DNA of 64,000 nucleotides from a virus (IMGVR_UViG_3300013902_000267); one strand, 5' to 3'. Positions 847 through 24,623 are shown, counted from the first letter of the stretch. Numbers and translations: made by a program. The notes: a model not told the origin generated them from the letters alone.

Positions 847-942
847 AATTTCTATTAAATGCTAAATTATTTTTTATATTTATCATTTTTAAAACTATTT
901 AAAATAATTAATCTATAATAATTAAAATAAAAGGTTTGTTTT

Positions 943-1518: not shown

Positions 1519-1530
1519 TTTATAATTGTT

Positions 1531-1710: not shown

Positions 1711-1712
1711 AT

Positions 1713-2396: not shown

Positions 2397-2398
2397 TT

Positions 2399-4577: not shown

Positions 4578-4583
4578 TAATAT

Positions 4584-5938: not shown

Positions 5939-5940
5939 TT

Positions 5941-6177
5941 ATGAGAAAATACGAATGTGAGATTGAAGATTATCATGGACATTTCTTTCACCATCGGTTT
6001 GAAGCAAACGATGATAATGAAGCGTTGGATAAAGCAAATGACCATGGTTATAGATATTATGCTAATGATGATACTTTATATTATGTAGAAGGAGATTATG
6101 TTGATTATAGTAATATAAGTACAGATCATTATAAAGAGAATATAAAGAAGTACCATCAAATATGGACTTCAATTTAA
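5941..6177 (+). CDS. hypothetical protein
   Basis: Track ORF of 78 aa. Confidence 0.5.
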   Translation: MRKYECEIEDYHGHFFHHRFEANDDNEALDKANDHGYRYYANDDTLYYVEGDYVDYSNISTDHYKENIKKYHQIWTSI

Positions 6178-6189
6178 ATAGTATATTTA

Positions 6190-6225
6190 AAAGTCACTAA
6201 AATAAAAACTTTAGTGACTTTTTCT
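6190..6225 (+). terminator. rho-independent terminator
   Basis: AAAGTCACTAAA / TTTAGTGACTTT 12-bp hairpin followed by a T run. Confidence 0.6.
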
Positions 6226-6263
6226 ATTATTATATATGAATTATAATTTAAACTATAAGATAA

Positions 6264-6647
6264 ATGAATTTAATTACAAATATAAAGAAATCATACAAAC
6301 ATATACCATATACATTTAAACATTGGAAGATGGTATTGAAATTAGAGAAGAAATATATAGGCTATTATAAATATCCTTTTCATGATTTAGATAAATTGTT
6401 CATGTATATATTCTTCCCTTATTTAGGAACAAAGATAATTCAGAAAATTCATACAAAGTTTGCTAATCATCATTTACGTAAATATAAGAAACATATGAAT
6501 TTTGATGAAGCTATTCTTGATTGGGAATCTGCAAGGTTTACAAAACCTGATAAACCATTGGATGCGTGGGATACATATCAAAAATATTTTACGGAATTTT
6601 CAAATGAACTTTTACCTATATTTGAAAAATTTAACTTGAAACATTAA
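6264..6647 (+). CDS. hypothetical protein
   Basis: Track ORF of 127 aa. Confidence 0.5.
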   Translation: MNLITNIKKSYKHIPYTFKHWKMVLKLEKKYIGYYKYPFHDLDKLFMYIFFPYLGTKIIQKIHTKFANHHLRKYKKHMNFDEAILDWESARFTKPDKPLDAWDTYQKYFTEFSNELLPIFEKFNLKH

Positions 6648-6869
6648 AGACTTTATTTATATACGTTTATATAAAATACATAATGATTTTGTTTTAGAAG
6701 AACATTTATAAAAACTGTTTTAATAATTAGTGTAAAAGTGAGCACACAGAAAAAGAGAATTATGATAATTTCTGTAGAGCATGGATCAATACCAGCATTA
6801 TATAATGTACAGTTTATAGCAACGAATGTTCGAAATTTAAATTAACTATATGTCTAACATTCTTAATTT

Positions 6870-6939
6870 TTATTATTGGTAATAAGTGGCAAAACATGCT
6901 AGGAATAGTAAGTTATCGGTTCGAACCCGATATAATAAA
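6870..6939 (+). other. tRNA-like fragment (T arm plus acceptor only)
   Basis: ATCGG-TTCGAAC-CCGAT T arm and TTATTAT/ATAATAA acceptor pairing are present, but no acceptable D or anticodon arm could be folded. Confidence 0.25.
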
Positions 6940-7154
6940 GATAGAAAATGGATGATAGTTAATGATGCTAGATATAACGCTTATTATAGAAGTATTATAG
7001 GATTTGATTGAAGTGTGGATGTTTATTATACCTGTTCTATTTTTTAATAAAACAAATGTCCCTATAGATTGAAACATGGATTGAGATGAATATAATATGA
7101 TGTAATTTTAAGTTTGTTATATTTAGCATTAATTTTTTAATAAGAATTATTAAT

Positions 7155-7598
7155 ATGTATATGTTACGATTACAAGATTTACCAGATGGTGCAATAGTTC
7201 AATTATACTATAGGTCTTACGAAGAAGGATATGGACGTAGTAAACCAATGTTTAGAACATATATTATATCATTTAATGATAATACTATAATTTTTTCAAA
7301 TGTAGAATCTAAATACGAAGGTAATTTTAGTTTTTATTTAAATCAAACAGCACAATATATACATTTTGATCCAACAGACATAAATAATATTAATAATTTT
7401 GGATTTGATAAAAACTATATTATTGTATATGGAATTTATACATTTGATGATTCTAATAATAAAGTAAAAATGCCATATTCAATGAAAGGCAAGTATAAAA
7501 TGAACATATACAATACAAAATGTATATATCAAGAAGATATATCAAAAATTGCAGGGGATGAAATACAAGCTTACAATAGACGATACAAATATTATTAA
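7155..7598 (+). CDS. hypothetical protein
   Basis: Track ORF of 147 aa. Confidence 0.45.
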   Translation: MYMLRLQDLPDGAIVQLYYRSYEEGYGRSKPMFRTYIISFNDNTIIFSNVESKYEGNFSFYLNQTAQYIHFDPTDINNINNFGFDKNYIIVYGIYTFDDSNNKVKMPYSMKGKYKMNIYNTKCIYQEDISKIAGDEIQAYNRRYKYY

Positions 7599-8109
7599 TA
7601 TAAACATATTACCCGGTGCAAAATTTGAATGTACAATATATAAAGGCAACGGACATTATGAAAGTTCATATGGAACTATTATGAAATGCAATGATAGATT
7701 AGTATTAATGTTGTGTGGACTTTTGTTTTTTGGATATGACTATCATTCTTGGAATAGTATTCATACTTATAATAAAAAACATTATCTGTATTATAATTAT
7801 TATAAGAATGATAACGATAGTATGAAAATAAAAGGTATTGTATGGTATTTAGATTTTGAAAAATATCCAGATAATTTTGGATTGTCTCCAAAATTATTTG
7901 TTGTTACTGATATATGGTTTAATAATATACATATATATAAAAGTAATTATATGTTGAAGAAATACAAACCAAGTTTAAAACCAAATTATATACATGAAGC
8001 AAATGAAAATTGTAAATGTTTTAAATATTGCGGTGGTAGTGTATATTCATCGGAAAAGTTAGAGGAATATGCAGAAGTAATACCTAATAAAAATTATAAT
8101 TATGAATAA
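7549..8109 (+). CDS. hypothetical protein
   Basis: Track ORF of 186 aa; the true start may be a downstream ATG. Confidence 0.45.
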   Translation: MQGMKYKLTIDDTNIININILPGAKFECTIYKGNGHYESSYGTIMKCNDRLVLMLCGLLFFGYDYHSWNSIHTYNKKHYLYYNYYKNDNDSMKIKGIVWYLDFEKYPDNFGLSPKLFVVTDIWFNNIHIYKSNYMLKKYKPSLKPNYIHEANENCKCFKYCGGSVYSSEKLEEYAEVIPNKNYNYE

Positions 8110-9580
8110 TATTAAAGAAAATAATTTTTTCATTCCTAGAAAAATTGCTGTAGGATTTGTAAAAAGAGCAAATACATATTCAGGAAAGTTATCTTATATT
8201 ACTTATTATGATAATACTAATAAATTACGTAAGGACGTATCTTGGAATGGTTGGAGAGATAAAAATATAGAACCTGTATATACGGATAATATTCCAACAA
8301 CAGGTTTTATTATTAATAAACGTGCAGGAGGCGAAAAATGGGGATGGAACCAAAGAGCAACATATGCGCGTATATATGATCCAAGAGGGTTTGAATTTGA
8401 GATAACTATAGATAATCTTCTTTGGATTCTGGAATATACTAATTCAGAAAACAAGGAATTAAAAGGACAATTTGTATATAGTTGGTATGGAACTGAACTT
8501 GTACTTATGCCTATTGTTTCATCTGATTATGAAGAATCTAAACGTTTATCTGAACAACAATATAATAAAACATCGTTTAAAGAACGCGATTTAATTCCTG
8601 GAACACTTTATAAAATGAAAGGTAAGGAATTAAATGAATTGGTATATATTGGTAAAGTAAAAGTATCTACTGAATTCAATATGTCTTATGTTAATAAATT
8701 AGCATTTGTACCTATACAGGATTCTTGGAAGTTATATTCACATTATGATAAAAATATCAACAGATCTGATTTCTTTATATTTAAAAGTGTTTCGTCTGTT
8801 ATAGCAGAAATGCAACAAAATTATTTTAGTGACGATATTGTAAAAGAATATCTACATAGATTTGATATGTGCGCGTATTCATATAATTTCTGGAATAATT
8901 TTGGTAATTTCATTGATAAATTTGTTTCTGACCATCCATGTATAATGAATGATTATAAAAAACCATATAAGATAGAATATAATAGATATAGCACAGAGAA
9001 GAATAATTATAATAATATTATTGATAAATTCGAATATAATGGTATAAAGTTAGATTCATTAAGAATTATTCCTGAATGGTTAATCCAAACAGACAGAGAA
9101 CACATATTTTATGAAAATACAAGTGTATTAAAATCAGTTATATCCGATGATGGTAAATCCGTATTGATAAAAGATCAATATCCTACTATAGAAAAGATTA
9201 ATACATTTAATAGGATTGTATATAAACGAATGTATGATTTCATGAATATTGATTTAAATACAAATACATTTAATAAAATATGTGATCCCGGATTGTGGGA
9301 TGAATATAGAGGTCATCATTCTTGCGAAGTATCAAATATTATATATAAGCATCCATCAGAAACTACAGATGTTCAGAAAGCAAGAGAAATTAATACTCAG
9401 GTTTCATTAAATGATAACAGAACATTCTTATATTATATAACGAAGGATAATTATATATCTATATCATTACAGGAAATGATACGGAATCATCGTTATATGA
9501 AATTCGGTTTCTCGAATGGTATAGATGAGAATAAATGGGTAACATTAGATGTAATATTGTTACCAAAAAAGATTAAGTAA
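8102..9580 (+). CDS. hypothetical protein (492 aa)
   Basis: Track ORF; long open frame. Confidence 0.55.
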   Translation: MNNIKENNFFIPRKIAVGFVKRANTYSGKLSYITYYDNTNKLRKDVSWNGWRDKNIEPVYTDNIPTTGFIINKRAGGEKWGWNQRATYARIYDPRGFEFEITIDNLLWILEYTNSENKELKGQFVYSWYGTELVLMPIVSSDYEESKRLSEQQYNKTSFKERDLIPGTLYKMKGKELNELVYIGKVKVSTEFNMSYVNKLAFVPIQDSWKLYSHYDKNINRSDFFIFKSVSSVIAEMQQNYFSDDIVKEYLHRFDMCAYSYNFWNNFGNFIDKFVSDHPCIMNDYKKPYKIEYNRYSTEKNNYNNIIDKFEYNGIKLDSLRIIPEWLIQTDREHIFYENTSVLKSVISDDGKSVLIKDQYPTIEKINTFNRIVYKRMYDFMNIDLNTNTFNKICDPGLWDEYRGHHSCEVSNIIYKHPSETTDVQKAREINTQVSLNDNRTFLYYITKDNYISISLQEMIRNHRYMKFGFSNGIDENKWVTLDVILLPKKIK

Positions 9581-9657
9581 TTTTTTTATTTCAAAATAAT
9601 TATGTATCTTTGTATTGTTAATAAACAAAAAGTATAAACAATTAAAAATATATAATT

Positions 9658-10149
9658 ATGGCAACAAATAAAAAGAATACAGTTAAGAAGTATATGCTTT
9701 CCCAAAATTTACCTTTTGGTAATTTAAAAGCAGGCATGATTTTCTCTTATGATACTATTACAAAAACTGCGGTATTTCCAAATGGACAAGAGATCTCACC
9801 ATTTGATGTAACAGATAAGAATTTCGTTAAGTCTGTCGCAGATGTAAAGTTTAATGTAGGTGATTGTGTCATTTATCATACACGATTGTATAAGATTACT
9901 GATATTAACTATGTAACAGGTCGTTGTAAGCTTTTAGAGTTTTACGCAAATAAAGAGGTTGATTTTGTAAGTCATTCTGTATTGACAGCAGCACAAGTTT
10001 ATTGGTTTGTTAATTCGTCTGGAACTGTTTCATCATCATATATTGGCAAACAACCAGATGCAGACTTATGGAGAGCAAAAACAAAGAACATGTTTAATAC
10101 CAAGGAGGAGTGTCAGAAGTATAAGAATATTGTTCTTAAAAGTAAATAA
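9658..10149 (+). CDS. hypothetical protein
   Basis: Track ORF of 163 aa. Confidence 0.55.
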   Translation: MATNKKNTVKKYMLSQNLPFGNLKAGMIFSYDTITKTAVFPNGQEISPFDVTDKNFVKSVADVKFNVGDCVIYHTRLYKITDINYVTGRCKLLEFYANKEVDFVSHSVLTAAQVYWFVNSSGTVSSSYIGKQPDADLWRAKTKNMFNTKEECQKYKNIVLKSK

Positions 10150-10198
10150 AGAATATTTTTCAAATTTAAAATTTTAAATTAATATTTTATTTAACTCT

Positions 10199-10236
10199 TA
10201 AAGAGATTTGTAGTGATTACAAGTCTCTTTTTTCTT
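10199..10236 (+). terminator. rho-independent terminator
   Basis: AAGAGATTTGTA / TACAAGTCTCTT hairpin followed by a T run. Confidence 0.5.
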
Positions 10237-10269
10237 TTTAATAAATATATAAAATATAAAAGAAGTATT

Positions 10270-10863
10270 ATGCCAACAATGATGCCATTAATGGATAAAG
10301 ATACCGTAAGATATATAACATAGAATATTACACCAGAAGAAACTAAATATGTAGCTGATATAAAATCTACTATTGATGATACAAAGTGTGAACCAGAGAA
10401 ATGTGATGATGTTATATATCTTACTAAGATTATCGCTTTTTATACTAAATTTACAAATCTTGCAAATACAACACCTAATAATCAATATAAGATGCATATT
10501 CAAGATTTTATGTGGAGATTACAGCAATATAAGGAAGATATATTTGAAGTTGTTCAATCTATCATAGGAGTTTTAAATGGTTCCGATATTACAAAGATTG
10601 AATTACCTATAAGTGATAATCCATTAGAGATTATAAATGAATTAAAACAATGTGTACAAAATTGGTTTACACTTCATACAGATGATATTGAATATGAAGG
10701 CGCTAGATCATTAACTAGTTCATTCCTTTCTGTAATTCATAAGTTTGTTTACCTTTTTAGATTAGATAAATGCTCGACTGCTGATTATGGTCAGGATTAG
10801 AAATTACCAAATCCTGATGCAGGATTATGTGGAGTAAACGGAGCATATGCAGTAAATTTTTAA
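10270..10863 (+). CDS. late-module hypothetical protein (2 in-frame TAG)
   Basis: ATG upstream is in frame with track ORF 10492-10800. Only TAG interrupts the frame and it ends at TAA. Confidence 0.55.
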
Positions 10864-10874
10864 TATGATATAAT

Positions 10875-11828
10875 ATGAATCCTATAAATCAACCATCATC
10901 TAGAAATTACAATATCAATGGTAGTACAAGAAATAATGGGTTCTTATATAAAATTATGCCTTTATCATTTAATTTACAATAGAGAGGAAATGATTTTAAA
11001 GTTAAAAAATACAATAAGTGTAAATTTAATATCGGCGATAATGTAAGAGGATTGTGTTTGGAAGATAAGAAAGAACATTCAGGACGAATTACTAATATCT
11101 TATACAGTACAAATACAGAAGTTCCTTATTTAGTTTATATCATTGATAATAAGACAAGATAGAAATTATCATTAAACTTTAGTTCGCTAGAATTTAATAA
11201 TTCTAAAATTGATGAGTCATATGGGTTTGATGTTGCCATTAAACTATATGAAACATTAAATAAAGATAAATATAATAAATTAAAACTTTAGAATAGAATG
11301 GTAAATTCAATAAAAGTTTTACTTGAAGAATATTTTAATAATACAGAACAAATGGATATGTTGTTAAATGATTATTAGAAACAACAGAAAAAAGCAAGTA
11401 AAGCATATGATTCACGTCAAGAGTTTTTAAAATCAATATTAGGTAAAGTAACATATAACAAATATCAAAATAAAGGTATGTTTGCTCCTATTCCTTTATC
11501 TGCATTGCATTTAACATTCGAAGATTTTTATTATTTGTTTCCAGAGAATAATATTAAGATGAGACCAATGGATAATGAAGCAGGTGTAGAGAAAGTAAAG
11601 AAACTTATTGCACGTATTAATAAGGAATATCCTAATAACGGTATTAGATTGTTAGATAATGGTGTTTCTTATACATTAAGTTCAAATCTTGTATTTAAGA
11701 GATTAGATAATATAATTGATTTTTTATAGATAATTCAGAAAAATGTTTTGAGGATTTCATCTGATAAAACAAATCCAACAGTTAATTGGAAGGCGATGAT
11801 AAAGAAATTCAGAAATTATCTACGATAA
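10875..11828 (+). CDS. late-module hypothetical protein (about 6 in-frame TAG)
   Basis: ATG 10875 is in frame with track ORF 11478-11729 (603 nt apart). All intervening stops are TAG and the frame ends at TAA 11826-11828. Confidence 0.65.
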
Positions 11829-11861
11829 TCAAATAAGTAAAATAAATTAATTAAAATAATA

Positions 11862-12365
11862 ATGATGATAACTACAAACATAAGTAACATTCCAGACGCA
11901 TGGGATGGTTATTTTGAACAATAGGTTAATAAGTTCACGCCTTCTGTTGAAGTTCCTAAGCCTTGGAGACATCCGGTTGGACCTGAACCTATGATGAAAC
12001 CTTGCAAGCATCATAAGACATAGTTTATTATAAAACATAAACCTGCTACATTACCAAATGGACCAGAACATGGATGTAACGTATGTGATCCATATCATCC
12101 AAATTTGTATGATCATATGAATATGCCTTGTTTTAATCAACATAAACCATATGGTATCGCTACTAATAGATTAATGAGTCCATTTGAAGATGATGATAGA
12201 CCTGATTGGCATGAATTCCATGCTAAGAATCGTAAACCTATGATGTTTGAAGAAGTTATAGATGAAAATGGTTGTTCACATGGTCCTCATGGAACAATTA
12301 ATGTTAGACCAGTTGAACCTGCTGATGATGAAGCAGATGAGATTGAAGATGAAGTAACAGTTTAA
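11862..12365 (+). CDS. His/Cys-containing protein with acidic tail (2 in-frame TAG)
   Basis: ATG 11862 is in frame with track ORF 12105-12365; CKHHK, GCNVCDPYHP and GCSHGPHG motifs. Confidence 0.65.
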
Positions 12366-12398
12366 AATGAAAATTAATTAATGATAGAAATATAAATT

Positions 12399-13166
12399 AT
12401 GCAAACATCAAGTAAAGTTTCATACGATAATTGGAGTGATTGGAATTTAGGAAATTAGATAATGAATATAAGACCTGTTGGTACATATTGCTTCTGTGAA
12501 CATCATCATTGTCACCATCATCATCCTTGTGATTGTGTAGATTGTGAATTCTCAGAATCATATATTAAACCAGAATCTTGTTGTCATCATCATCCGCATC
12601 CACCAGTACCATGTCCACCACATCATTGTGATTGTCATGATCCACATTTATTTCCAATTGATCAAGATAATGATGGATTTGTAGAAAGTGATATGATTCA
12701 TAAACATCCAGAACCATATATTCCAGAACCATTACCAGGAGAAATTGGAGATAAAGAAGATGATACAACAAATAGAATGGAAGTAGGTGACGAAGTTGAT
12801 GATATTGATGATTCAACAAATTATTATGGTTCAAATTTAGTTGTAAGTATTCCTAAAGAAATTCAACCAGTAGAAACATCAGATGAAATTGATTCTATTT
12901 TAGATGAAGATACACAAGATGATATGGTAACTACTGATGAAGATGGTTATCATACATTAAGTGATGAAGTTCCAGCAGAAGAAGATAATTGGGAAACATC
13001 AAAAATGATTGATACTAATACATCTAAAATTATTGAAGAAACACCAGTTCCTGAATAGGAATTAAAGGAAGTTGAAACTATTCCATCTGTAGAATCAGTA
13101 GAAGAGAAACCCACACGTGGACGTAGAAGAGTTAATCGTGGAGGAAGACGTAAAAAAGAAGAATAA
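12399..13166 (+). CDS. His/Cys-rich putative metal-binding protein (2 in-frame TAG)
   Basis: ATG 12399 is in frame with track ORF 12462-13058. CFCEHHHCHHHHPCDCVDC...CCHHHPHPPVPCPPHHCDCHDPH; reads through TAG 13056 to TAA 13164-13166. Confidence 0.65.
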
Positions 13167-13188
13167 TTTTTATTCTATATATAATAGA

Positions 13189-13226
13189 AAAGAGACTTAG
13201 AACAAAAATACTAAGTCTCTTTTTAT
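13189..13226. terminator. bidirectional terminator between convergent genes
   Basis: AAAGAGACTTAG / CTAAGTCTCTTT hairpin flanked by A and T runs. Confidence 0.6.
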
Positions 13227-13262
13227 TTTTTATAAACATTCACATTTAATTTTACTATAAAA

Positions 13263-13889
13263 TTAAAGCATACATTCATCCCACCAGTCAGCGCGGAAAG
13301 TCATATCACAAGACATCAAATCTGTACTGTCATAATTAAGTGTAGGACCAGGTACACCTGTTGTAGGGAAAATGTAATAGAATACCCATTGCCAATATGG
13401 ATTACCAGCACGATCTTGCATAGTAATAGTCATTGATGGCGCCACGTAATCTTTCTTAAGGCCTTCACGACCTGTAAGAGGATCATAAATAAGGTCAACC
13501 CATTCACGAAGGAACTTATATGTGTAGTTCTCAGGTGAACCGTTATCATATGAAAGGTTAAGGTTAAAGTGTAATGTCAAGTCGACATTAGTTCTATCTG
13601 GTTTTGCACCAGCGAATGAACGTTGTGCAAATTTATACTTTTGCTCTGTTGCGTTAGCACCAAATGAAGTAGAAATCTGACCAACACTTTGTACACCTTC
13701 AAGAATAATATTCAAACGTTCATCATCTGTTGTATCAACCATACCTTGAGGACAACTTAATTGAACAGTAAACAAGTTCAAATATATAGGTTCCCATAAT
13801 GAGGTAGATACACGGCTATTTCTAAAATGTGATAATCCTAACAAACCTGGAGATTTCTTAGGTAAAGTAGGTCCATTTGTTACTGCCAT
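13263..13889 (-). CDS. tail tube protein (T4 gp19-like)
   Basis: IYLNLFTVQL near the N-terminus and a MTFRADWWDE C-terminus recall T4 gp19 PNLFQVEI ... TLALDYWE. TAG-free and visibly higher GC than its neighbours. Confidence 0.6.
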   Translation of the reverse strand: MAVTNGPTLPKKSPGLLGLSHFRNSRVSTSLWEPIYLNLFTVQLSCPQGMVDTTDDERLNIILEGVQSVGQISTSFGANATEQKYKFAQRSFAGAKPDRTNVDLTLHFNLNLSYDNGSPENYTYKFLREWVDLIYDPLTGREGLKKDYVAPSMTITMQDRAGNPYWQWVFYYIFPTTGVPGPTLNYDSTDLMSCDMTFRADWWDECML

Positions 13890-14042
13890 ATTATTATTAA
13901 AGTATATTTTATTTTATTTATCTGTGAAAAATAGGTAGATTAAATGTAGACAAAAATATTTTTTTATAGTATAAATTAAGAATTTAAAAAAAATAGAGAT
14001 AAATAATTAAGTTCAAAAAATAAATTTTAAATAAAGAAGAAA

Positions 14043-14216
14043 ATGAAGAAGATTTTATTTGTACTTGCTGCTGTTGTAACAATGAGTTTCGCTTCTTGTG
14101 GTAACAAGACTACTACATGTGGAACAGCAAATGATTCAACTGCAACAGATACTACAGTTGTTGATTCTACAGCTACAGATTCAACTGCAGCTGATTCTAC
14201 AGTTTGTCCTATGTAA
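14043..14216 (+). CDS. small lipoprotein with DSTA repeats (57 aa)
   Basis: MKKILFVLAAVVTMSFASC signal peptide plus lipobox, then a repeated (T/A)DSTA(T/A) motif. Below the track cutoff. Confidence 0.55.
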   Translation: MKKILFVLAAVVTMSFASCGNKTTTCGTANDSTATDTTVVDSTATDSTAADSTVCPM

Positions 14217-14389
14217 TTCATAAGACAAACTTTATTTTAGAGAAGATTATTGTGTAATTAAAATATAACCTAATATAAGGTTTATATTAAACTAATTTTA
14301 GAGATATACTAAATATATTCATTTATATTTGGTATATCTTTTTTTATTTAATAAATATTTAAAATTTATTTAACTGAATTATATAATAT

Positions 14390-15286
14390 ATGGCAACATG
14401 GAATCAAGCAGTTCAATAGATGGGTAAGTTTTATCAATAGAATATACATACATATCAAGGAGGTAAATCAGGACATGCGACAGGTGCTAGACGTTCTTAT
14501 TCATGTCCTTTAGTTGGACACAGTGTAGGAGATGATTGTTCAGGATTTACTTCTGCGTGTTTATAGTTATTTGGAGCATTTCCAGGCTCATATATTGTTT
14601 CATCTAGTGGTTTTGCATCAACATCTGGTGCAACAGCCGCATATTTAAGAAAAGCTGGATTTTCACCGTTAAGATATATTAGTTACTCATCTTTATAGCC
14701 ATATGATATTGTTGCAAGAAATGGACATGTTGAAGTATTTTGTGGTATGAAGGGAAGTTCACCAATGTCATACGCATGGGGAAATATTCATGATGGCATA
14801 AATGGACATGTTGGTATGCCATGTTGGTTTTCTAAACAGTCTTATTCTATTGTATGGAGAAATTCTGGTGTAAGTATAGATACACCATTAGATTTTTCTT
14901 CAGTGTCTGGCGGTTCATTACAACAATAGATGAATTCTGGATATGGTACAGGTGGAACATTAAATGGGTAGACAGGTTCATAGTTTAATTATACATCAAA
15001 TACATATCCTGTTCATGATGAATATGAAACTATTTCATCTGGTAATGGTTCAAAATCTGTATTTGAAATTGTAGGTGAAAATACATTACGTATGGCATAT
15101 ACAAATTCATCATATATACAACAATTAGATTCATCTAATTATTAGTTAAAAAATACTCGTATATATTCAACTAATGATGCATCTATAATATTAGATGAAT
15201 TATCAATACCATTAGATCCATTTGATACGAGTGTTAATACATTAGATTCAAGTGTTATTGATAATTCAGTTAAAACAAATAATTAA
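14390..15286 (+). CDS. NlpC/P60-type cell-wall peptidase (about 8 in-frame TAG)
   Basis: ATG 14390 is in frame with track ORF 14747-14929. DCSGFTSACL (Cys nucleophile) and NGHVEVF (His); ends TAA 15284-15286. Confidence 0.7.
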
Positions 15287-15292
15287 TAATAT

Positions 15293-16333
15293 ATGGCTGG
15301 CAAGAAATTACTTAATGGTGTTTATATAACAAAGAAAATAATGGAAGCTTTTAATCTTAAAGATTATCAGGCTGCTGGATTTGCTGGTTGTTTTATGGAA
15401 GAATCTGGTTGTGATCCCGGTGCATATAATGCCGCTGAAAAATCTGGAAGATTTAAAGGTTCATCAGCGAACGGTGCAGGTTATGGTGCAGGTCTTGCAT
15501 AGTGGTCTAATGCATGGAAACGGTAGATATAGAGATAGTTTAATAATTCAAGGCCTATAGAAAATTGGACATTAGATTAGCAAATAGCTATTGTTACTAA
15601 AGGCTGTTCATAGTCTTTTGTAAATTTATTAAGAAAATGTACATCAGTAGGTTAGTCTACAGATATTGTTTTAAGAGGATATGAAAATGGTTCTGCAGGT
15701 AAAGGTACTAAATTACGTTCATAGCAATCAATGAAAGCATATACGTGGTGTAAGACATCATATATGGCAGATGGTAGTAGACGTACGTTTAGTGATGGAT
15801 ATATTGGTGCATTAACATGTAGAACATCATGGGCTAATGCAGTTTTAAGTAAAATGGGATCAGTTAATCTTGCAGATTTATCCGGATTAGGAACAGAAGT
15901 AGGTGGAGGATTAGGTGATGATGGCTCTTTTGGTTCTACTGGTGGAGGAGGAACTGGAGATTCAAACGCATATCCTGTTCATGATGAATATGAAACATTT
16001 ACTGGACAAGGTGGAAATATATTTGCAAATGCAAAAGATAATGCATTTCAATTAGCTGCTGATGCATCAAAATCTAAATTTTCATCTAAAGATTCTGAAG
16101 CATCTAAGCATACACGTATATATTCTACAAATGATTCTTGTATTGTTTTAGATGAATTAAGTATACCATATGATCCAAATGATCCAACTATTGAATATGC
16201 AAATCAAAATGTAAAAGCGGAAGATGTTAAGAAAGATACATCTACTAATGCAAAAGATAATACTAAAGACACATCTACAAATAAAAGTACAAATAAATCT
16301 AATACTACAAAAAAGACAACTAAATCTAAATAA
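15293..16333 (+). CDS. lysozyme-like (phage tail lysozyme-type) peptidoglycan hydrolase (about 8 in-frame TAG)
   Basis: Track ORFs 15293-15502 and 15731-16333 are co-framed (438 nt apart) and joined only by TAGs. AAGFAGCFMEESGCDPGAYN ... GYGAGLA-TAG-WS motif. Confidence 0.7.
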
Positions 16334-16335
16334 TT

Positions 16336-19300
16336 ATGATTACAATAAATGGTATTAAATATTTAAAAAAAGGAGAGACATCAAATGATAAAACAATAAC
16401 GCATTATTATTATACAGATTCATTAAAGAAAACTTATAACATAATATATAATGGCAAAAATGCTAAATTATATACAGATACTAAAGTATACAAGGATTCT
16501 GATACAAATTAGATTATAAAGAAAGATTTCTTTAATTATACTATTGATTACGGAACAGGAAAATATGGAGGTGTTTGTTATTCAAAATCAGATGAAGATA
16601 AGATATTAGGTATGGTCGATTCTGATAGTAATATAGATGGAAGTTCTAATGGAGATTCTACAACTGATGGTGATAATAGTTCAAACTCTGGAAATAATTC
16701 TGATGATTCTGATAATAATGACGGTAATAGTTCAAATAATGGTAATGGAACAGGTGATGATACAAATGATTCTGATAGTAATGGATCTGGTAATAAAGAT
16801 ACTAATAATAAAGGTATATTTGAGGATTCAATGGGTAATAAAGATAAAGATAATCCTCGAAGTTCATTACCATTAGGAGCAGATATTAAAGATCCTGATG
16901 TTACAGGTTTTAGCATTGATGAAGTAACAGCGCCACATCCACGAGAAAACAATTGGTATAATAAAGGTTCTGTTTGTCCAATAATACGTATAAATGATCA
17001 TTATTTTTCTGATACTGAAATATAGCATTTTTCTATGGAAACTGGATATTATAAGAATTTTTATGATTATCAAGTATACCAAGCACCGTTAACAGGTGTT
17101 TTACCAACTATGAGGCTTATTGTTACAACAACAGATCCAGGTTTATTAAAGAAAGATTTTATAAAGCAAGGTGATAGATGTAATGTATTTTTCTAGAGTA
17201 ATCATTCTATGATTAAATCTATGAGATGTGATTTCAGAATTACTAATGTTGTAACAGATTAGTTAGATTAGACGTAGTATTAGAAATATCAAACATAGAT
17301 TATAACAGGTGAACTTTATGTCCCGGATTTAAGAAATGAAGAAACTCGTTATAATTTTAATGGTTCATCAAGAGATGCTATGATGGATTTGGCAAAGAGA
17401 TTAAGATTAAGTTTTTTCTTTTGTGATCCTGATGATACTAATGATAAAATGGTTTGGTGTAATTGTAAAACACCTGAAATGTTCATTCATGATTTAACAA
17501 CGCATGCATGGAAAAATTCTATATCATTCTTTGAATCTTGGATTGATCCACGTTATGGATTATCTTTTATGAATATTAATAGATTATTAGGTGAAGATGG
17601 ATTTGATGAATCAATAGATATGACATTCTGGACTAATACATTTATTAATAATAGATCAGTTGATGGAAAATCTGCAAATGAAACAGATACAGAATAGAAA
17701 AATAGTACACATATTCAAACAAAATGTTTTACTAATATTATTAATGATAATGAATCTGCTACAGTATATCATGTTAATAGTTGGAGATTGGTTAATAATG
17801 CATAGGAAATACAAGATTTTGTTGGATTGAATTGTAAAATGCAATATTCATCTGTTAATCCTGGATTATTATCAGATGAGAATAATAATCCAAATTATAG
17901 TGTAGAATTTTCATTATGTTTAAATAGAACTAAATTTGATCCAACTAAAAAGGATAATGATTTTTATGTATTATTAGGACCTGGTAGAAATATGACATAT
18001 GCGAGTGGCGATGCCGCCATGGGAACATCTGAAACACAATCTTCAAATAAAAATGAACCTGAACAAGTTACAAATCAAATGTCTGATGGTGATGCAGATG
18101 CAATGGATAGTACAGGAAATAATATGATGTCTTCTGGTAATACACATCAATTTTATGAAGTTGCTTATGAACATAATATGAGAAATTTACTATAGTTATA
18201 GAAATAGTATTTACTTGTAGAATTAAATGGTGCAAACTTAAGTATTGTTCGCGGTGAAAAAATGCCTATTGTATTAATGGATTTAAATAAAGCAGAACAA
18301 GCTATTAGAACTAGTCAAGCACGTACAAAAATAGAAGAATGTATGTATGAAGCTGAATCCGGTTGGTATATAATTGATGGTATTGAATGGGTTTTTGATC
18401 CTGATAATGATTAGGGACAAGGTACAAACTGGCGAACTAATGTGAAATTAGTTAGAAGAGAATGGCCAATACCATCAAAAATAAAAGATGCAAATGGTAA
18501 TACTGTTTCAAAAAATGTCGCAAATAGTATTGTTTTGGTAGATATTGGAAACGGACAATAGATAAGAATGGCTTATTATGATGCAGTAAAGAAATATAGT
18601 TAGGAAATAAAAAATGGTGATGTCAAAATATTAGGTGGAACAACATCTGAAGACGCAGTTGTAATTGGTCAGAAAAAACAAAACATATCTTCAACTAATG
18701 ATGAATAGAATTCAGATGATCTAGAAGAAAGTGGTAAATTATATACTGCAAATGGTGTAGAGACTGTAAGTGCAGTTAATTTTAATCTTGATTTAATGGA
18801 TCAATATGTAAAAGATTCTGATTATGTTGGTTAGTCTACAATACCTTTAACTGGTTTGAAAGATTTTATGAAAAATATTTATAAAACAATATTATCTGAA
18901 TCCGATAATAAATGTAAATTGGTATCTGGAAGACGGTGGGCAGTAGATGAATATGGTAATAAGGTAAATGGAAATGCGTTTGTAAAGAAATATGATTATT
19001 ATAAATGTATGAATGCTATAGGTGAAGTAATGTATTTTAAAAAAAATAATTCAAGTCATTTATATGGTGAAGCTATTGATATTATTAATAATGGTATAGA
19101 TTTTACTGAACTTATGACTAATGTAATAATGAAATCACCTGCGATATTAAAATTATTTTATGATAATGGTGTTTCTGCTTATATAGAGCAAGCAAAGGAT
19201 GATACAGGCGCAACTACTAAACATTACCATATTGGAACTGATACAATAAAACAACGAGAATTTTGGGAATCTGTTAAAGCTATATTAGGTTCTGATATGA

Positions 19301-19425
19301 TTCCAGGAACTATGATAACATTTATGAACTATATGACAAAAAATACATAGAGAACAACAGAATTCTCTGTAAGTAGTGAAATAGACGAAAACACATTACA
19401 AAAAAATAGTAATAATGATAAATGA
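16336..19425 (+). CDS. large tail/baseplate-associated protein with C-terminal M15-type peptidase (about 19 in-frame TAG)
   Basis: Track ORFs 16612-17025, 17380-17697, 17827-18195 and 18856-19350 all share the frame of ATG 16336. N/D/S/G-rich low-complexity region; SSHLYGEAIDI...HYHIGTD zinc-peptidase motif; ends TGA 19423-19425. Confidence 0.7.
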
Positions 19426-19429
19426 AAAT

Positions 19430-19460
19430 AAGGGAATAGATATTTGTAATCTATTCCCTT
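19430..19460. terminator. bidirectional terminator between convergent genes
   Basis: AAGGGAATAGAT / ATCTATTCCCTT perfect 12-bp hairpin. Confidence 0.6.
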
Positions 19461-19467
19461 TATTATA

Positions 19468-20433
19468 TTAAATATGTTTTCTTTTTAATATTTGAATAAA
19501 TTCATCTTCAGTTATTTGAGCACCTGCTGCACCTTCATGTCCTCCACCATGATAATATTCTTGAAGATATTTACCACAATGGAATTCATGTGTATCTGTA
19601 GGATTATACAATGAAATTGCCCACATACCATCAGGTAATCTCTTAAATACAATACCGTTTTTGATTTTATCTTTACATGTTTTAAATATCTGTGAATTTG
19701 TTGGTTTCTGAATAAACAAAGCACATGCAGATCGATTATCAAATCCTACAGTCCATGTAAAATCACCATATGAATTAATGAGGTTCTTATTGTTTCTATC
19801 AATAATCTCTGATTCTAACTTACCTAATTCTTTAAGTTTCCCTAGTTCACATGCTAATTCTTCTGGTTTTGCTTGATATATTATATAATATACATGATTA
19901 ATAATTTCACTTACATTTAAATCATATTTATTATTAACACCAATGTTTACATATCTACAAAAATCAAAATTAATATTCTCCGCATCATAACTCCAGCTAT
20001 CCCATGCAGACAATACTTTAAACAAATCCGGTATTCTTCCAATAAAATTATACAAATAGCTAAAAGCATTATATAATGCAGAATGATCGATTGTCCTTAA
20101 ACCCTGAATATCGTCAAAATGTAATTCTTTTGAACTATTAATCATAGGCGCATGATGGTCAAACCAATATAGTTTATCACCAAAATGTTTTTTCAGTTTA
20201 AGCATTGTTTCTGCTGTATCAAACGAAATATCTGATATATAAACATAATCATATACACCTATAATATCATTTTGAATATTTAAGTTCTCCATCCCATTAT
20301 AATCTTCACCTAATAGTGTGATCATATTTGGATGTATTCCTTTTTCAATTACAAGAAAATTATATATGATAGCCATCGAAAATAAACCATCATTATCTTC
20401 CTTGTGATATATAATTAAATATTTGTCATCCAT
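19468..20433 (-). CDS. DHH/DHHA1 phosphoesterase (NrnA-like)
   Basis: HKEDNDGLFS, DISFD, WFDHHAP and GGGHEGAAG motifs. Confidence 0.75.
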   Translation of the reverse strand: MDDKYLIIYHKEDNDGLFSMAIIYNFLVIEKGIHPNMITLLGEDYNGMENLNIQNDIIGVYDYVYISDISFDTAETMLKLKKHFGDKLYWFDHHAPMINSSKELHFDDIQGLRTIDHSALYNAFSYLYNFIGRIPDLFKVLSAWDSWSYDAENINFDFCRYVNIGVNNKYDLNVSEIINHVYYIIYQAKPEELACELGKLKELGKLESEIIDRNNKNLINSYGDFTWTVGFDNRSACALFIQKPTNSQIFKTCKDKIKNGIVFKRLPDGMWAISLYNPTDTHEFHCGKYLQEYYHGGGHEGAAGAQITEDEFIQILKRKHI

Positions 20434-20445
20434 TATATTATTAAT

Positions 20446-20631
20446 TTAATAATTAGTTTTCTGTTTCTCTAACATTTCTATTGCTTTTGCTTGTCTATCT
20501 ACTGTCTCTTGAAGTTGTTCACACTTATATTTGTAATAATGAGCTTCACCAGCTGCAATCAATATACAAACACATGTAAGTCCCAATATATAAATATCAA
20601 GCTTATTAAAAATCTTTTTTATTGTTTCCAT
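20446..20631 (-). CDS. small membrane protein
   Basis: Track ORF of 61 aa with one hydrophobic helix (IYILGLTCVCILIAAG). Confidence 0.5.
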   Translation of the reverse strand: METIKKIFNKLDIYILGLTCVCILIAAGEAHYYKYKCEQLQETVDRQAKAIEMLEKQKTNY

Positions 20632-20642
20632 TTAATATATAA

Positions 20643-21344
20643 TTATTTTGATAAAGTACAATTATTAAAGAAAGTACAATATGATATATTAACTATATCA
20701 TTATATATAATTGTATCAACAAGTTCATCATATCTCAAAAGAGATGCTATGAAATTTTTATTATTCTGAAATTTAACACCTGGTTGCAATATCTTCGTTT
20801 CATAATGCATCCATATATTAACATTATTAAACTTATTTTTTAATATATCTATATACTTATGATAATCATCAAATGTATTAAATACACCTTTAAATAATGT
20901 ATCTATTATGTTAATATCATTGAAATCAACACTATTTAATAAATTTAATTCATCTGTATTACATGTTTCATATATTACATTATTATCTTTATCATATGAT
21001 TTTGTATTATATAAAATAAGTTGTATATCCTTTTCAGTTGTATTAATTATTTTTATATTTCTAACTATCAACGGACATGATATAATATATGATATAGGAC
21101 ATAGTATGCAGTTCTTTTTAATATTACTATCAAATATTAATGTAACACCACCATCTGAATATTCTATATCATCTATATTATGAACAATATTAATGTTTAT
21201 ATTATAATCATTCTTTTGTTTCTTTAATTTCAGTATATCATCTTTCCATCTTTTGAATTCTAATTCTCTTTGTTCATTTAGAACCTTTGAACCAACAGAT
21301 TCATTATTTACTATGTTATCAAATTCTTCGTCAAATAAATTCAT
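20643..21344 (-). CDS. hypothetical protein
   Basis: Track ORF of 233 aa. Confidence 0.5.
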   Translation of the reverse strand: MNLFDEEFDNIVNNESVGSKVLNEQRELEFKRWKDDILKLKKQKNDYNININIVHNIDDIEYSDGGVTLIFDSNIKKNCILCPISYIISCPLIVRNIKIINTTEKDIQLILYNTKSYDKDNNVIYETCNTDELNLLNSVDFNDINIIDTLFKGVFNTFDDYHKYIDILKNKFNNVNIWMHYETKILQPGVKFQNNKNFIASLLRYDELVDTIIYNDIVNISYCTFFNNCTLSK

Positions 21345-21433
21345 ACCTTTTTAAAATTAATCAATAATTATATAGAAAAATGATGAAAAAGTTATATATT
21401 TTCTTAAAAATATTGATATTTTAACAATAAAAA

Positions 21434-21463
21434 ATGATTCCAGTAGAAGTATACTGGAATCAT
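21434..21463 (-). terminator. rho-independent terminator downstream of nrdD
   Basis: ATGATTCCAGTA / TACTGGAATCAT perfect 12-bp hairpin, followed by a T run on the minus strand. Confidence 0.6.
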
Positions 21464-21489
21464 TAAAATATTAAAATAAAATAGTTAAA

Positions 21490-21579
21490 TTAAATATTTT
21501 CTTTTGGTAAATAAACACGTGTCTTTTGTTCTTTCTGACGTCCATCAGACCAATTCGAAATTTTAGTTAAATCACAATA
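21490..21579 (-). CDS. nrdD: anaerobic ribonucleotide reductase NrdD, exon 6 (C-terminus after the glycyl-radical Gly)
   Basis: Minus-strand frame reads (Y)CDLTKISNWSDGRQKEQKTRVYLPKENI-TAA, completing RIIG|Y from exon 5. The 5' boundary is approximate. Confidence 0.6.
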   Translation of the reverse strand, partial: YCDLTKISNWSDGRQKEQKTRVYLPKENI

Positions 21580-21817
21580 TACCCGAACTTTCATTCTATT
21601 TTAAAGGGGTTAGACTATACCACTAACTTCTTGAGTTACATCTTGGTAGTCGTTGAGGGCTTTTATTTGTTTCGTATCAAATAACTATCCCTGCTGATTA
21701 TCCATTGTTATATCATTAGAATTTTTACACTTTGGTATCTAATGCTTTAGGAACTTCCAGCATATTCGATGTTTGCTATATATGTCACCATATATAGGGG
21801 CATTTAATTAAAAATTT
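21580..21817 (-). ncRNA. group-I-like intron 5 (ORF-less)
   Basis: About 238 nt interrupt the RIIG/Y glycyl-radical motif. Contains ACTACCAAG ... GGTATAGTCTAA, like the P7 region of T4-type group I introns. The exact splice sites are ambiguous. Confidence 0.5.
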
Positions 21818-22156
21818 ACCCGATTATTCTGTCATATAAACTTACATGAACTGATCCACACTTTGGACATACACTAAATGGTGTCTTTGAAATATATCCA
21901 CAATCTTCACATTTACAATTAGGAACATTAAATGTCCAATATTGACAACCATTCTCTGCCGCAAATTTCATAATGTGAACAATCTGTTTCTTAGACAAGT
22001 GCTCTGACAAATTGAGATGCGCTGCTGAACCACCATCCAAAAAATCTCCAATATAGTTCTTACCATGTAAGGTAATCTTATCAAAGATTGACAATGTTTT
22101 ATCATTTGGTTTGAATATGTAAGACGCATACAGGTTAGTGTCTGTTGGTACCCAAT
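21818..22156 (-). CDS. nrdD: NrdD exon 5
   Basis: (Y)WVPTDTNLYASYIFKPNDKTLSIFDKITLHG...LDGGSAAHLNL...CEDCGY...CPKCGS...YDRIIG; track ORF 21816-22094 extended upstream. Confidence 0.75.
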
Positions 22157-22191
22157 CAACTCTGTTACATGATTACATAATAATTTTAATA

Positions 22192-22479
22192 TTATTGTTG
22201 AATGTAATCTGATTTATTAATATATTCATTTAGATTTATTAAACCTGCATGAATTTTCCTATGACAATTTGAACATACACATACACATTTTTTTATTTCT
22301 TCATATAGTTTTTCTTTACCTCTCCCTCGATGTTTACCTATTGTAAAATCTTTTTCATTTGGATCTATATGATGAAAATCTATACAACATGGTTCATATT
22401 CACTACATATTATACATGGATTCTTTAATGAATATAACCATTCTGTTTTTCTTTTTTGTGAACGCTTATTTTTGTTCAT
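22192..22479 (-). CDS. HNH homing endonuclease (intron 4)
   Basis: CIICSEYEPCCIDFHHIDP...CSNCHRKIH HNH/zinc motif; track ORF of 95 aa. Confidence 0.7.
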   Translation of the reverse strand: MNKNKRSQKRKTEWLYSLKNPCIICSEYEPCCIDFHHIDPNEKDFTIGKHRGRGKEKLYEEIKKCVCVCSNCHRKIHAGLINLNEYINKSDYIQQ

Positions 22480-22612
22480 TATGTATTTCAGGATGTGCTT
22501 TTCTCATCTATTTCCTATATAATTTTCTACATTCTTTACATACTGCACGTCCTTTTTCAAACATTTCTATAGACAATTCTTTACCACATTTATTACATAT
22601 TTTTGTTGTCAT
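22466..22612 (-). CDS. Cys4 zinc-ribbon ORF, probable detached N-terminus of the intron-4 HNH endonuclease
   Basis: MTTKICNKCGKELSIEMFEKGRAVCKECRKLYRK-TAG-MRKAHPEIHNEQK. Overlaps the HNH ORF start in another frame at an A-run. Confidence 0.4.
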
Positions 22613-22911
22613 ATATATTAAATTATGTTTTATTATTTATCACCGGAACATGACAAAAATAACATAACCCAATTATATTAATAAACGCTTAATTATTTCT
22701 AATCAAGTCTCTATGTTACCATAGAGTTCGGACTATTGCATAGTTTTGTTTCACAACAAAACTCCTTTTTATTTAGTCTCTCAGGCTGCCCATAACATTG
22801 TTGTTATTGCTTGCCCCTCGTTATCCTTACTACCGGTACCTAAGGTAATAAAATGTAAGGAACTTCGAGTCAATTAAAAAAGGTTTTACATGGACATTGT
22901 TATTGTTGTCT

Positions 22912-23395
22912 ATCCATCTTCAGAATCCCAATTATAATTCTTTATTGCCAAACTTTCAGCTGGTATACATTCAGTATTGAACGTTAACTTATGACCGTTA
23001 AATGTACCTGCAGCTTCTTGATTCTTTTGCTTTATATATCCAAATATTGTTTGACAAAGTTTTTCATAATGAGGATTTACATTACAAGTAATTCCTAAGA
23101 ATTCTGCCATTTGATTAAGACCATTCAAACCAATTGTTAAATATTGCTTATTCAAATTAATAAACCCTGCTTTATATACAGGTAATAATCCTGCGTCATA
23201 CATATCCCAAAGAAGTTCATTATATGCTGTATGATATTTATATACTCTATCAAGAATATTACCAAAATATTCGCACATATCATCATAATGCTCTTCTACA
23301 TTTTCTTTTGTTACTCCAGATTTCTTAACACTGTTAAACCAGTCTTGAGTTATGCGACTAAGATTCAGGGTTATCACACTTTTACTTCCTGTTTG
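22912..23395 (-). CDS. nrdD: NrdD exon 4
   Basis: QTGSKSVITLNLSRI ... AESLAIKNYNWDSEDG; track ORF 22910-23377 extended upstream. The 5' boundary is approximate. Confidence 0.75.
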
Positions 23396-24623
23396 ACGTT
23401 TTCTCCATATATTTCTATATGGTCCGGGTCATATCTTATGTTTATTTAAATAATAAACATTGCACTATTTCGGCATTTAAAACGATTCGTTTCCTAAAAC
23501 GTTACTACGTATCAATAGTAGTCCTACTCCACCTGCTCATCACTTAGGGGATGACCTCCACACACATTAATAATTTTTATATGTTCTACCTATTAACATA
23601 TTCCTAAAATTATTCATTAAATAATTTTTATATTTACCGATTTTTAATTCTTCAATAGATTTGCCATTATTATATTGTTCTCTTAAATAAACAACTTCAT
23701 CTTTAGATAACAATGGTAACTTCTATTTACATTTATCAGTTCTAATAGGCATTTTTACATGCATATATGATTTTCCAAATAATATTTTATTAAATCCACT
23801 CCATGAATATAAATTACTATATTCTTTAAAAATATCATCTTCTTTTTCACCATTTACAAAATATCTTATTCTTATGTTTAATACTTCTTCATCAGATAAA
23901 TTCTTAGAATTTGCATGCATATTTCCTCTACGTGTTCTTCGATCTGATTTATAAAAATCATTTACTTTATCTGTATTATATTCTATACCAATTTCAGGTC
24001 TTGTATAATAATGCCAATATTTTGAAAATCCACTTTTTGACATTCTATCTTTATACATTTCATATACTTCTCCAAAAGTATATTTCATAGAATAACGTAT
24101 TTTTCTTAATTCTAATAATTCATTATCATTTAATATTGCTTTGGGATGCTCCTCCCCAACTTTTATTATAGTTGCAGAATGTCCACCCAATGTAGAATTA
24201 TATCCATTATTATAACTATCATATAATTTAATGTAATATATTTCTTTATTATCAGCTTCATCCTAATTAGGAACATTATCTTCTAATATTGAAAAATTTG
24301 ATTCATTAATATTATATTTTCTCATTGCTCTATATAATTTATAATCACTATGTTTCATATCATTTAAATGTTCTCTTACTCTTATATGATAATGATGTGT
24401 CTACCCAATATATACTTTTCCATTAGGAAATGATATTTTATAAATTGTAAATATTTTATTCATATATTATAAATGTAAAATTATAACATATTTATATTAA
24501 CTTGGCTCGGTATTACCATGCATATAGTTTCACAACTTATGTTTAGGCTTCACCGATGCATTAATATCGCTATATTAATACATTGCTTGATTAGCAATTA
24601 AGCACATAAAGGACCCAAGTTGA
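23396..24623 (-). mobile_element. group-I-like intron 3 with GIY-YIG endonuclease ORF
   Basis: Separates GNLG(I) from QTGSKSV. Structured flanks include GCCGAAATAGTGCAATG. Boundaries are good to about 10 nt. Confidence 0.6.
23567..24463 (-). CDS. GIY-YIG homing endonuclease (3 in-frame TAG)
   Basis: IYKISFPNGKVYIG-TAG-THHYHIRVREH...YNNGYNST; in frame with track ORF 23723-24190; ends TAA. Confidence 0.75.

Follow-up and report, generated by a model that had tools for sequence, protein, structure and literature searches.

The closest described relatives of the DNA analysed here are the Lak megaphages, in which the codon TAG is not a stop. Fifteen Lak genomes, Lak-B7 among them, were reported to have coding densities below 70% when genes are called with the standard bacterial code (code 11), and TAG was assigned to glutamine (code 15); a CTA suppressor tRNA was described, release factor 2 (RF2) was found in all genomes, and large TAG-free regions were seen, the structural genes lying in TAG-rich regions (Devoto et al. 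2019, PMC6784885). In a larger set, glutamine aligned to TAG in 75–85% of consensus cases, 38 of the 51 genomes had a TAG suppressor and every one had a TTA suppressor, and TAA showed no sign of being recoded (Crisci et al. 2021, PMC8346664). Recoding has been proposed to time the expression of late and lysis genes, and the recoded modules of Lak phages were found to be scattered and to include replication genes (Borges et al. 2021, bioRxiv 10.1101/2021.08.26.457843). Here we examine a stretch of viral DNA of 64,000 nucleotides (IMGVR_UViG_3300013902_000267; "the window"), in which the open reading frames (ORFs) between 10270 and 19425 are broken by TAG, and compare it with these systems.

The window is an exact substring of the genome of Prevotella phage Lak-B7 (MK250026.1, bases 139512–203511; 100.0% identity), whose complete record is 550,702 bp; the G+C content is 27%. 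Megablast of window positions 10000–25000 against phage records gave Lak-B7 at 100.0% over the full length, the other eight baboon Lak-B genomes at 99.5–100%, and Lak-A1, A2 and C1 at ~82%. The window is therefore a stretch of the Prevotella megaphage Lak-B7 and belongs by sequence to the Lak clade. We conclude with high confidence that TAG specifies glutamine (code 15) in part of the Lak-B7 genes, by recoding of the Lak type with a phage suppressor tRNA and RF2. This is a correct rediscovery of what is already known for Lak phages including B7, and for Lak-B7 its value is confirmation, not discovery. Added to the published Lak work are a codon-substitution test at the level of the window, a tally of tail-lysozyme columns and an intron-split CUA tRNA allele in Lak-B1, B3, B6 and B9.

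A reading made from the sequence alone had proposed that the ORFs of 10270–19425 are fragments of intact genes, and in this its description was exact. The eleven code-11 fragments that it named all appear, with identical coordinates, in the mechanical ORF list. Reading through TAG joins them into seven contiguous plus-strand genes, with an eighth at 62683–63897, all starting at ATG and all closed by TAA except for 16336–19425, which ends in TGA:

10270–10863, plus strand: gene of unassigned function, 197 residues, 2 TAG (10321 and 10798), ATG to TAA; no match in Pfam or PHROG.
10875–11828, plus strand: gene of unassigned function, 317 residues, 5 TAG; no match in Pfam or PHROG.
11862–12365, plus strand: His/Cys/Pro-rich gene, 167 residues, 2 TAG.
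12399–13166, plus strand: acidic, His/Cys-rich gene, 255 residues, 2 TAG.
14390–15286, plus strand: gene with a DCSGF motif, 298 residues, 8 TAG; no match in Pfam.
15293–16333, plus strand: phage tail lysozyme (PF18013), 346 residues, 8 TAG, all within the catalytic domain.
16336–19425, plus strand: large virion-type protein, 1029 residues, 19 TAG, ending in TGA.
62683–63897, plus strand: GH24 phage lysozyme (PF00959), 404 residues, 9 TAG, with a hydrophobic segment at the N-terminus.

The 2609 internal codons of the seven genes comprise 46 TAG, no TAA and no TGA. When the same DNA is read in its two remaining frames, TAA or TGA makes up 10% of the codons, and the probability that the frames are open by chance is thus ~1e-120. 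In 16336–19425, the sequence-only reading had estimated about 19 in-frame TAG and exactly 19 are counted: the coding frame has no TAA, the other frames have 42–88, and relatives hold a syntenic gene of ~1000 residues. Among the glutamine-like codons of the seven genes there are 51 CAA, 7 CAG and 46 TAG, so that TAG accounts for 44%. When these genes are compared with Lak-A1, 55% of the changed codons are synonymous in the fused frame and 11% and 6% in the other two frames, showing that purifying selection acts through the TAG-containing frames. Domain matches also cross TAG without a break. The PF18013 match in 15293–16333 (37.8 bits, residues 12–150) covers all 8 TAG of the gene, and the PF00959 match in 62683–63897 (27.9 bits, residues 225–366) covers 5, with a match to T4 lysozyme at E = 7e-5. 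Apart from in-frame TAG, no stop codon breaks these conserved frames.

Re-calling genes under the two codes, as had been proposed, gave the same picture. With a simple greedy ORF caller, the coding densities were:

Region 10270–19425: 56.7% under code 11, 94.7% with TAG as sense, 60.8% with TGA as sense.
Window: 72.1% under code 11, 87.2% with TAG as sense, 74.3% with TGA as sense.
Whole Lak-B7 genome: 61.7% under code 11, 89.4% with TAG as sense, 63.8% with TGA as sense (code 4).

The mean ORF length over the whole genome is 170 residues under code 11 and 283 residues with TAG as sense, so that code 15 gains both density and gene length. Reading TAA as sense also raises the apparent density (81%), as expected when the commonest stop trinucleotide is removed from DNA of 27% G+C, but the mean gene length barely increases (191 residues). 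The gain with TGA as sense is tiny and, given the absence of internal TAA and TGA from the seven genes, the earlier statement that neither codon needs to be read through stands. The 580 ORFs of the code-15 set end in TAA (505) or TGA (75), and in-frame TAG shows no excess towards the 3' ends of genes genome-wide; there is therefore no sign of TAG still acting as a stop.

The amino acid inserted at TAG was assessed from 10,255 window codons aligned to Lak-A1, the pairings of TAG being counted in both directions. TAG is paired with TAG in 42 cases, with glutamine codons in 30, with Lys in 6, Glu in 3, Ser in 3, Leu in 2 and with six other residues once each; CAA or CAG thus makes up 30 of the 51 pairings with a codon other than TAG. 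Most of the glutamine partners are CAA, two substitutions away, and the single-step neighbours TAT and TAC (Tyr), TGG (Trp) and TCG (Ser) are absent, TTG (Leu) occurring twice. In a likelihood model in which every amino acid is represented by the substitution spectrum that it shows in these alignments, the log-likelihood of the TAG partners is −91.8 for Gln; the runner-up, Lys, reaches −196.4. In these alignments, Lys and Glu are likewise what ordinary glutamine codons most often change to. In three more distant Lak-like contigs, TAG, CAA and CAG interchange at the TAG columns of the lysozyme (for example, TAG/TAG/TAG/CAA and TAG/CAA/CAA/CAG), and TAG positions are conserved or exchanged with CAA or CAG in relatives that are 60–82% identical.

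Distant homologues give a second view. The tail-lysozyme profile was searched against 1.8 billion representative proteins and 145 matches were aligned to it. The TAG at 15500 occupies the glutamine position of a GLAQW motif, as the sequence-only reading had noted from the string GAGLA-TAG-WS at 15500–15502; in 121 PF18013 homologues, this column is occupied by Q in 97 (80%), by S in 23 and by A in the remaining one, with K, E, L, W and Y all absent. When the 8 TAG columns are taken together, Q makes up 21.7% of the residues in the distant lysozyme homologues against a background of 5.1%, a 4.3-fold enrichment and the highest of all residues. Three of these homologues translate identically under table 11, and thus use the standard code, and all 3 have Q in the motif. 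A search of solved structures for the tail lysozyme gave no match even at E = 1. We discarded as circular the Q found in the closest database proteins (P0001–P0013): their DNA has TAG and the collection had been translated beforehand with TAG as Q. For this reason, DNA codons and verified standard-code homologues were used. TAG is aligned with glutamine in homologues, both in the Lak-A1 pairings and in the PF18013 family, and the proposed tally of TAG columns has in this sense borne out the prediction of an enrichment for Gln.

The broader statement that TAG sits where related families usually have Gln holds firmly only for the tail-lysozyme motif; for the other motif examples, the few solved homologues do not support it. 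The string YIG-TAG-T is present at 24403, in the minus-strand GIY-YIG ORF 23567–24466, and I-TevI has Ser at that column, contrary to what had been supposed. RDHNTC-TAG-LCG is present at 27003, in the minus-strand HNH ORF 26779–27726, whose match to solved homologues is weak and does not allow the residue to be read. At three GH24 TAG columns the residues of T4 lysozyme are N, R and M, the TAG column of the HtpG homologue holds K in TRAP1, and in NrdD structures one TAG column holds Q and another I.

No tRNA(CUA) gene was found in the 64-kb window, whose tRNAs are tRNA-Gln(CUG) at 33–104, tRNA-Lys(UUU) at 62193–62266 and a class-II-like gene at 62092–62187. The search of the complete genome that the sequence-only reading had called for located both a tRNA(CUA) and a release factor outside the window. 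The tRNA lies at 414053–414125 of Lak-B7 and folds into a canonical cloverleaf with the anticodon loop CUCUAAA (61.7 bits against the Rfam tRNA model). It is conserved, without an intron, in 11 of the 15 Lak records. Its acceptor stem, UGGGG.../...CCCCA (U1–A72, G2–C71, G3–C70), is the same as that of the two phage tRNA-Gln genes. These three pairs are identity elements for glutaminyl-tRNA synthetase in E. coli. Overall tRNA similarity was of no use for assigning the amino acid of the suppressor, being 68% to both of the tRNAs compared. The glutamine identity of the tRNA(CUA) is thus inferred from its acceptor stem together with the pattern of codon substitution.

The release factor, at 291031–292167, scores 402 bits against the RF2 model TIGR00020 (prfB, cut-off 370) and 216–236 bits against models of release factor 1 (RF1), for which the cut-offs are 400–423. 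It has the motif SPY in place of the SPF of RF2, and none of its 12 glutamine codons is TAG. A six-frame search for the GGQ motif pattern of class-I release factors, a motif search only, gave this ORF alone and no RF1. A transfer-messenger RNA (Rfam RF00023, 47.3 bits against a gathering score of 47) lies at 415981–416390, ~1.9 kb downstream of the suppressor tRNA locus, and is kept in Lak-B1.

The class-II-like gene at 62092–62187 (minus strand), which adjoins tRNA-Lys(UUU), was considered as a suppressor and rejected on its anticodon loop, UAUGAUG. It has a long variable arm and no U33; ARAGORN missed it, but the Rfam tRNA model gives it 45.3 bits. Its counterpart in Lak-B1 is entered as "Undet NNN pseudo" in a published table (Crisci et al. 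2021, PMC8346664).

These components suggest how the code might be changed during infection. On entry, the TAG-free ORFs, including the RF2 gene, would be translatable by the standard-code machinery of the host. The phage would provide the amber-suppressor tRNA(CUA), with its acceptor stem resembling that of tRNA-Gln and probably charged with Gln by glutaminyl-tRNA synthetase, and an RF2 that would terminate at TAA and TGA only. Once the two accumulate, presumably out-competing host RF1, the TAG-containing genes could be translated at full length, giving the tail-associated cell-wall hydrolases of 14390–19425, the GH24 lysozyme of 62683–63897, the homing endonucleases, nrdD and others, in what may be a temporal switch from early to late. 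Stop-codon recoding of this kind would leave part of the genome unreadable to the host until the suppressor tRNA and the phage release factor are installed, and probably sets when lysis and virion genes are expressed. It also has a practical consequence, in that standard-code annotation of Lak-B7 breaks about a third of its genes and hides structural proteins.

The genes of Lak-B7 partition into a TAG-free and a TAG-using set. There are 1383 in-frame TAG genome-wide, yet 361 of the 580 ORFs (about three-fifths) have none, where 158 would be expected if TAG were spread evenly over the glutamine-like codons. In the window, 931–10149 has 0 TAG and 10270–19425 has 46. The features concerned, beyond the fused genes given above, are:

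931–10149, plus strand: TAG-free block, readable in the standard code, directly upstream of the recoded genes; 0 TAG in 12 ORFs.
13263–13913, minus strand: tail-tube-like ORF, 0 TAG, within the TAG-rich block and on the opposite strand (PHROG 45 "tail tube", E = 4.5e-11).
23567–24466, minus strand: GIY-YIG endonuclease ORF, 3 TAG (I-TevI match, E = 8e-5).
26779–27726, minus strand: HNH homing-endonuclease-like ORF with HTH (helix-turn-helix) domains, 4 TAG, sitting between nrdD pieces.
27783–28961, minus strand: first piece of nrdD (anaerobic ribonucleotide reductase), 3 TAG (NrdD matches, E = 1.8e-13).
40811–41974, minus strand: LAGLIDADG endonuclease ORF, 7 TAG; a TAG-free block adjoins its low-coordinate side.

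Pfam matches in 931–10149 include RNA ligase, HisG-like, Ham1, cytidylyltransferase and SAICAR-synthetase-like proteins; also TAG-free are DHH, metallophosphatase, SPFH, TelA, CNNM, S1, NT5C and NAMPT genes. TAG is used in the window by the block of tail and cell-wall-hydrolase genes, the GH24 lysozyme, the three homing-endonuclease ORFs, nrdD, an HtpG/HSP90 homologue (1 TAG), a sigma-70-like factor (1 TAG) and a helicase-like gene. The sequence-only reading had spoken of late ORFs. Tail and lysis genes do use TAG, but so do nrdD, HtpG, the sigma factor and the helicase-like gene, the tail-tube-like ORF departs from the use of TAG in structural genes, and lateness itself is something that we infer; the use of TAG in late genes is a tendency and not a rule.

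Within genes, TAG is not clustered among the glutamine positions (permutation; z = −0.1 genome-wide and P = 0.51 in 16336–19425). The five TAG within 13 codons to which the sequence-only reading had drawn attention are all there (17260, 17269, 17275, 17281 and 17296). We rejected the idea that they form a special gate, as the permutation shows no clustering and the stretch is merely rich in glutamine. A read-through context after TAG was likewise rejected, since the +4 base resembles that after CAG, a dinucleotide effect. In the 135 genes with well-defined starts, the TAG share of glutamine-like codons is 0.50 over the first tenth of the gene and 0.36 over the last, a weak downward trend (chi-square P = 0.10).

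Three other explanations have to be weighed against the assignment of TAG to glutamine. If TAG were a true stop, the region would consist of decaying pseudogenes or of short ORFs that share frames by chance. Code 11 does yield only ORFs of 50–200 residues in the region, and most of the proteins are without a Pfam or PHROG match; decay or chance would nevertheless have to account for the absence of TAA and TGA from 2609 in-frame codons at an expected 10% per codon, for a synonymous share of 0.55 in frame against 0.06–0.11 out of frame, for the PF18013 and PF00959 matches that span 8 and 5 TAG, and for TAG being kept or swapped with CAA or CAG in relatives 60–82% identical. We give this explanation practically no credence. 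Nor do we think it at all probable, though the case is a little less extreme, that TAG is sense for another residue, be it pyrrolysine, Lys, Glu, Leu, Ser, Trp or Tyr. ARAGORN labels the tRNA "Pyl", the name that it gives to any CUA tRNA, Lys (6) and Glu (3) are the next commonest partners of TAG, and many TAG columns in homologues are dominated by E, D, K or L. Against this, the partners favour Gln over Lys or Glu by ~100 log-likelihood units, 80% of homologues have Gln and none has K, E, L, W or Y at the single TAG column that is strictly conserved, and CAA, at two steps, dominates while the single-step neighbours are absent save for TTG twice. Pyrrolysine in particular is very unlikely to be what UAG encodes here: Gln outnumbers Lys as a partner by 30 to 6, and the D loop (AGUGGUC) and T loop (GUUCGAGUC) of the tRNA(CUA) are of the ordinary kind, which we take to be unlike those of tRNA-Pyl.

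Somewhat less remote, but still very unlikely in our judgement, is partial suppression, in which inefficient read-through would be regulatory, most ribosomes would stop at TAG and the full-length product would be rare. The host presumably retains RF1, and the 5'-to-3' fall in TAG share is in the direction expected if early stops were cheaper, weak as it is. However, even if ribosomes passed each TAG 90% of the time, a gene with 19 of them would be completed in less than 15% of cases, TAG makes up 44% of the glutamine-like codons in the seven genes and occurs in frame 1383 times genome-wide, the base that follows it is the one that follows CAG with no special context, and the phage's own RF2 fits termination that has no need of RF1. 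Some observations do weigh against full reassignment of TAG to glutamine as we propose it. In Lak-B7 itself, Gln at TAG is read from the sequence. The tRNA(CUA) is 68% identical overall to tRNA-Gln(CUG) and 68% identical to tRNA-Glu. A tRNA(UUA) is present at 345556–345628 although TAA ends 505 of the 580 ORFs. The temporal switch fits imperfectly, with TAG in nrdD, HtpG, the sigma factor and the helicase-like gene and none in the tail-tube-like ORF 13263–13913. Finally, distant homologues are variable at most TAG columns rather than Gln, and the general conclusion in favour of Gln therefore rests on the substitution spectrum. With these points taken into account, the TAG-to-Gln recoding of code-15 type put forward by the sequence-only reading is supported by coding density, Gln columns, the tRNA(CUA) with RF2 and the identity with Lak-B7.

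Several of the recoded proteins carry further motifs. A PHROG search of six of them gave no match. By inspection only, the DCSGF gene 14390–15286 is a possible cysteine peptidase, and the C-terminal SHLYGEAID...HYH of 16336–19425 is like that of an LAS-type metallopeptidase. The adjacent genes 14390–15286 and 15293–16333 have in common a C-terminal module, YPVHDEYET...TRIYSTND..LDELSIP..DP. Judged from motifs by inspection only, 14390–15286, 15293–16333 and 16336–19425 may be three consecutive virion-borne cell-wall enzymes. Elsewhere in the window, nrdD is in pieces across 22886–28961 (minus strand), with the HNH ORF 26779–27726, a NUMOD4/HNH-like ORF at 25547–26092 (0 TAG) and the GIY-YIG ORF 23567–24466 intervening. 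An intein-like insert (CFDGDT...ITHN, then C) lies at the SSCC/CRL active-site motif of nrdD, inside 24598–25590. No group I intron was found in 22886–28961 at the Rfam gathering score.

The suppressor tRNA is not the same in all Lak genomes. The intron-less 73-nt tRNA(CUA) occurs in Lak-B2, B4, B5, B7 and B8 and in the A and C genomes; it does not occur in Lak-B1, B3, B6 and B9, and Lak-B1 has been listed as lacking a CTA suppressor (Crisci et al. 2021, Table S5, PMC8346664). At the syntenic site, 877 bp of Lak-B7 (413262–414138) are replaced by ~406 bp in Lak-B1. The Lak-B7 segment contains a GIY-YIG endonuclease ORF (413268–414029) with 8 TAG, the end of which lies 24 bp upstream of the tRNA(CUA). 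Each Lak-B genome has either both the endonuclease and the tRNA or neither, a pattern suggestive of a mobile cassette. The Lak-B1 segment contains a different tRNA gene (MK250020.1, 412033–412350), whose anticodon loop is split between positions 35 and 36 of the anticodon by an insert of 245 nt. This split locus was read in detail in one genome, Lak-B1, with which B3, B6 and B9 are grouped.

Overall, the insert is a weak match to the group I model of Rfam (15.7 bits, E ~ 0.1), the alignment falling at the conserved group I core (CAGAGACUAUAUACGG and AUGAAAUAGUCC). It can form a P1 helix, CUCU/GGAG, with the U–G pair of P1 directly after the exon base U35, and it ends in G. Splicing by group I rules gives a perfect cloverleaf with the anticodon CUA. 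The placement of the splice by ARAGORN, one base off and giving CGA, was rejected; it breaks both group I rules and would make a "Ser" tRNA without a long arm. Identical intron-bearing copies occur in three IMG/VR contigs, so that there is no sequence variation from which to judge covariation, and an intron-less copy of the B1-type tRNA gave no match in IMG/VR. On this evidence, the chances that the intron-split tRNA of Lak-B1, B3, B6 and B9 would serve as a functional CUA suppressor seem to us evenly balanced. If it does work, it accounts for part of the set of 13 Lak genomes, out of 51, in which no TAG suppressor was reported; tRNA finders that do not support long introns under-count such genes, and this may help to explain suppressors that appear to be missing from recoded phages. 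That self-splicing of this RNA gates the switch of genetic code during infection we consider much less likely. The split allele is a modest lead, not found in the Lak literature with which we compared it.

Another tRNA gene that appears to carry introns lies 85 bp upstream of RF2. The tRNA-Leu(UAA) gene of Lak-B7 (290203–290946) apparently has two group-I-like introns, one of 309 nt in the D loop and one of 348 nt between positions 34 and 35, each following a U and ending in G. Removal of both leaves a perfect class II tRNA of 87 nt, and RF00028, the group I model, matches intron 1 at 40.5 bits (E = 9.5e-9).

Compared with the published Lak megaphages, the genome is the same and there is no substantive difference. 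The recoded crAss-like phages have the same TAG-to-Gln change, suppressor tRNAs, recoded structural and lysis genes, and Bacteroidota hosts with the standard code (Borges et al. 2021); their recoded genes form one contiguous late module, whereas those of Lak are scattered and include genes of replication type. For crAss-like phages the change has been validated by metaproteomics (PMC9523058), while Lak recoding is known here from the sequence. The Jade and Agate phages, which read TGA as Trp and carry RF1 and TrpRS (Borges et al. 2021), share with Lak-B7 the logic of a release factor that spares the recoded stop combined with a suppressor tRNA. Their code-change genes are in the standard code, and the RF2 gene of Lak-B7 likewise has no TAG; they differ from Lak-B7 in the stop codon and in the amino acid. 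A cellular parallel is supE of E. coli, a tRNA-Gln(CUA) of mutational origin that weakly inserts Gln at UAG in competition with RF1. The supE genome still uses TAG as a stop, whereas in Lak-B7 580 of 580 ORFs end in TAA or TGA and 1383 TAG are sense codons.

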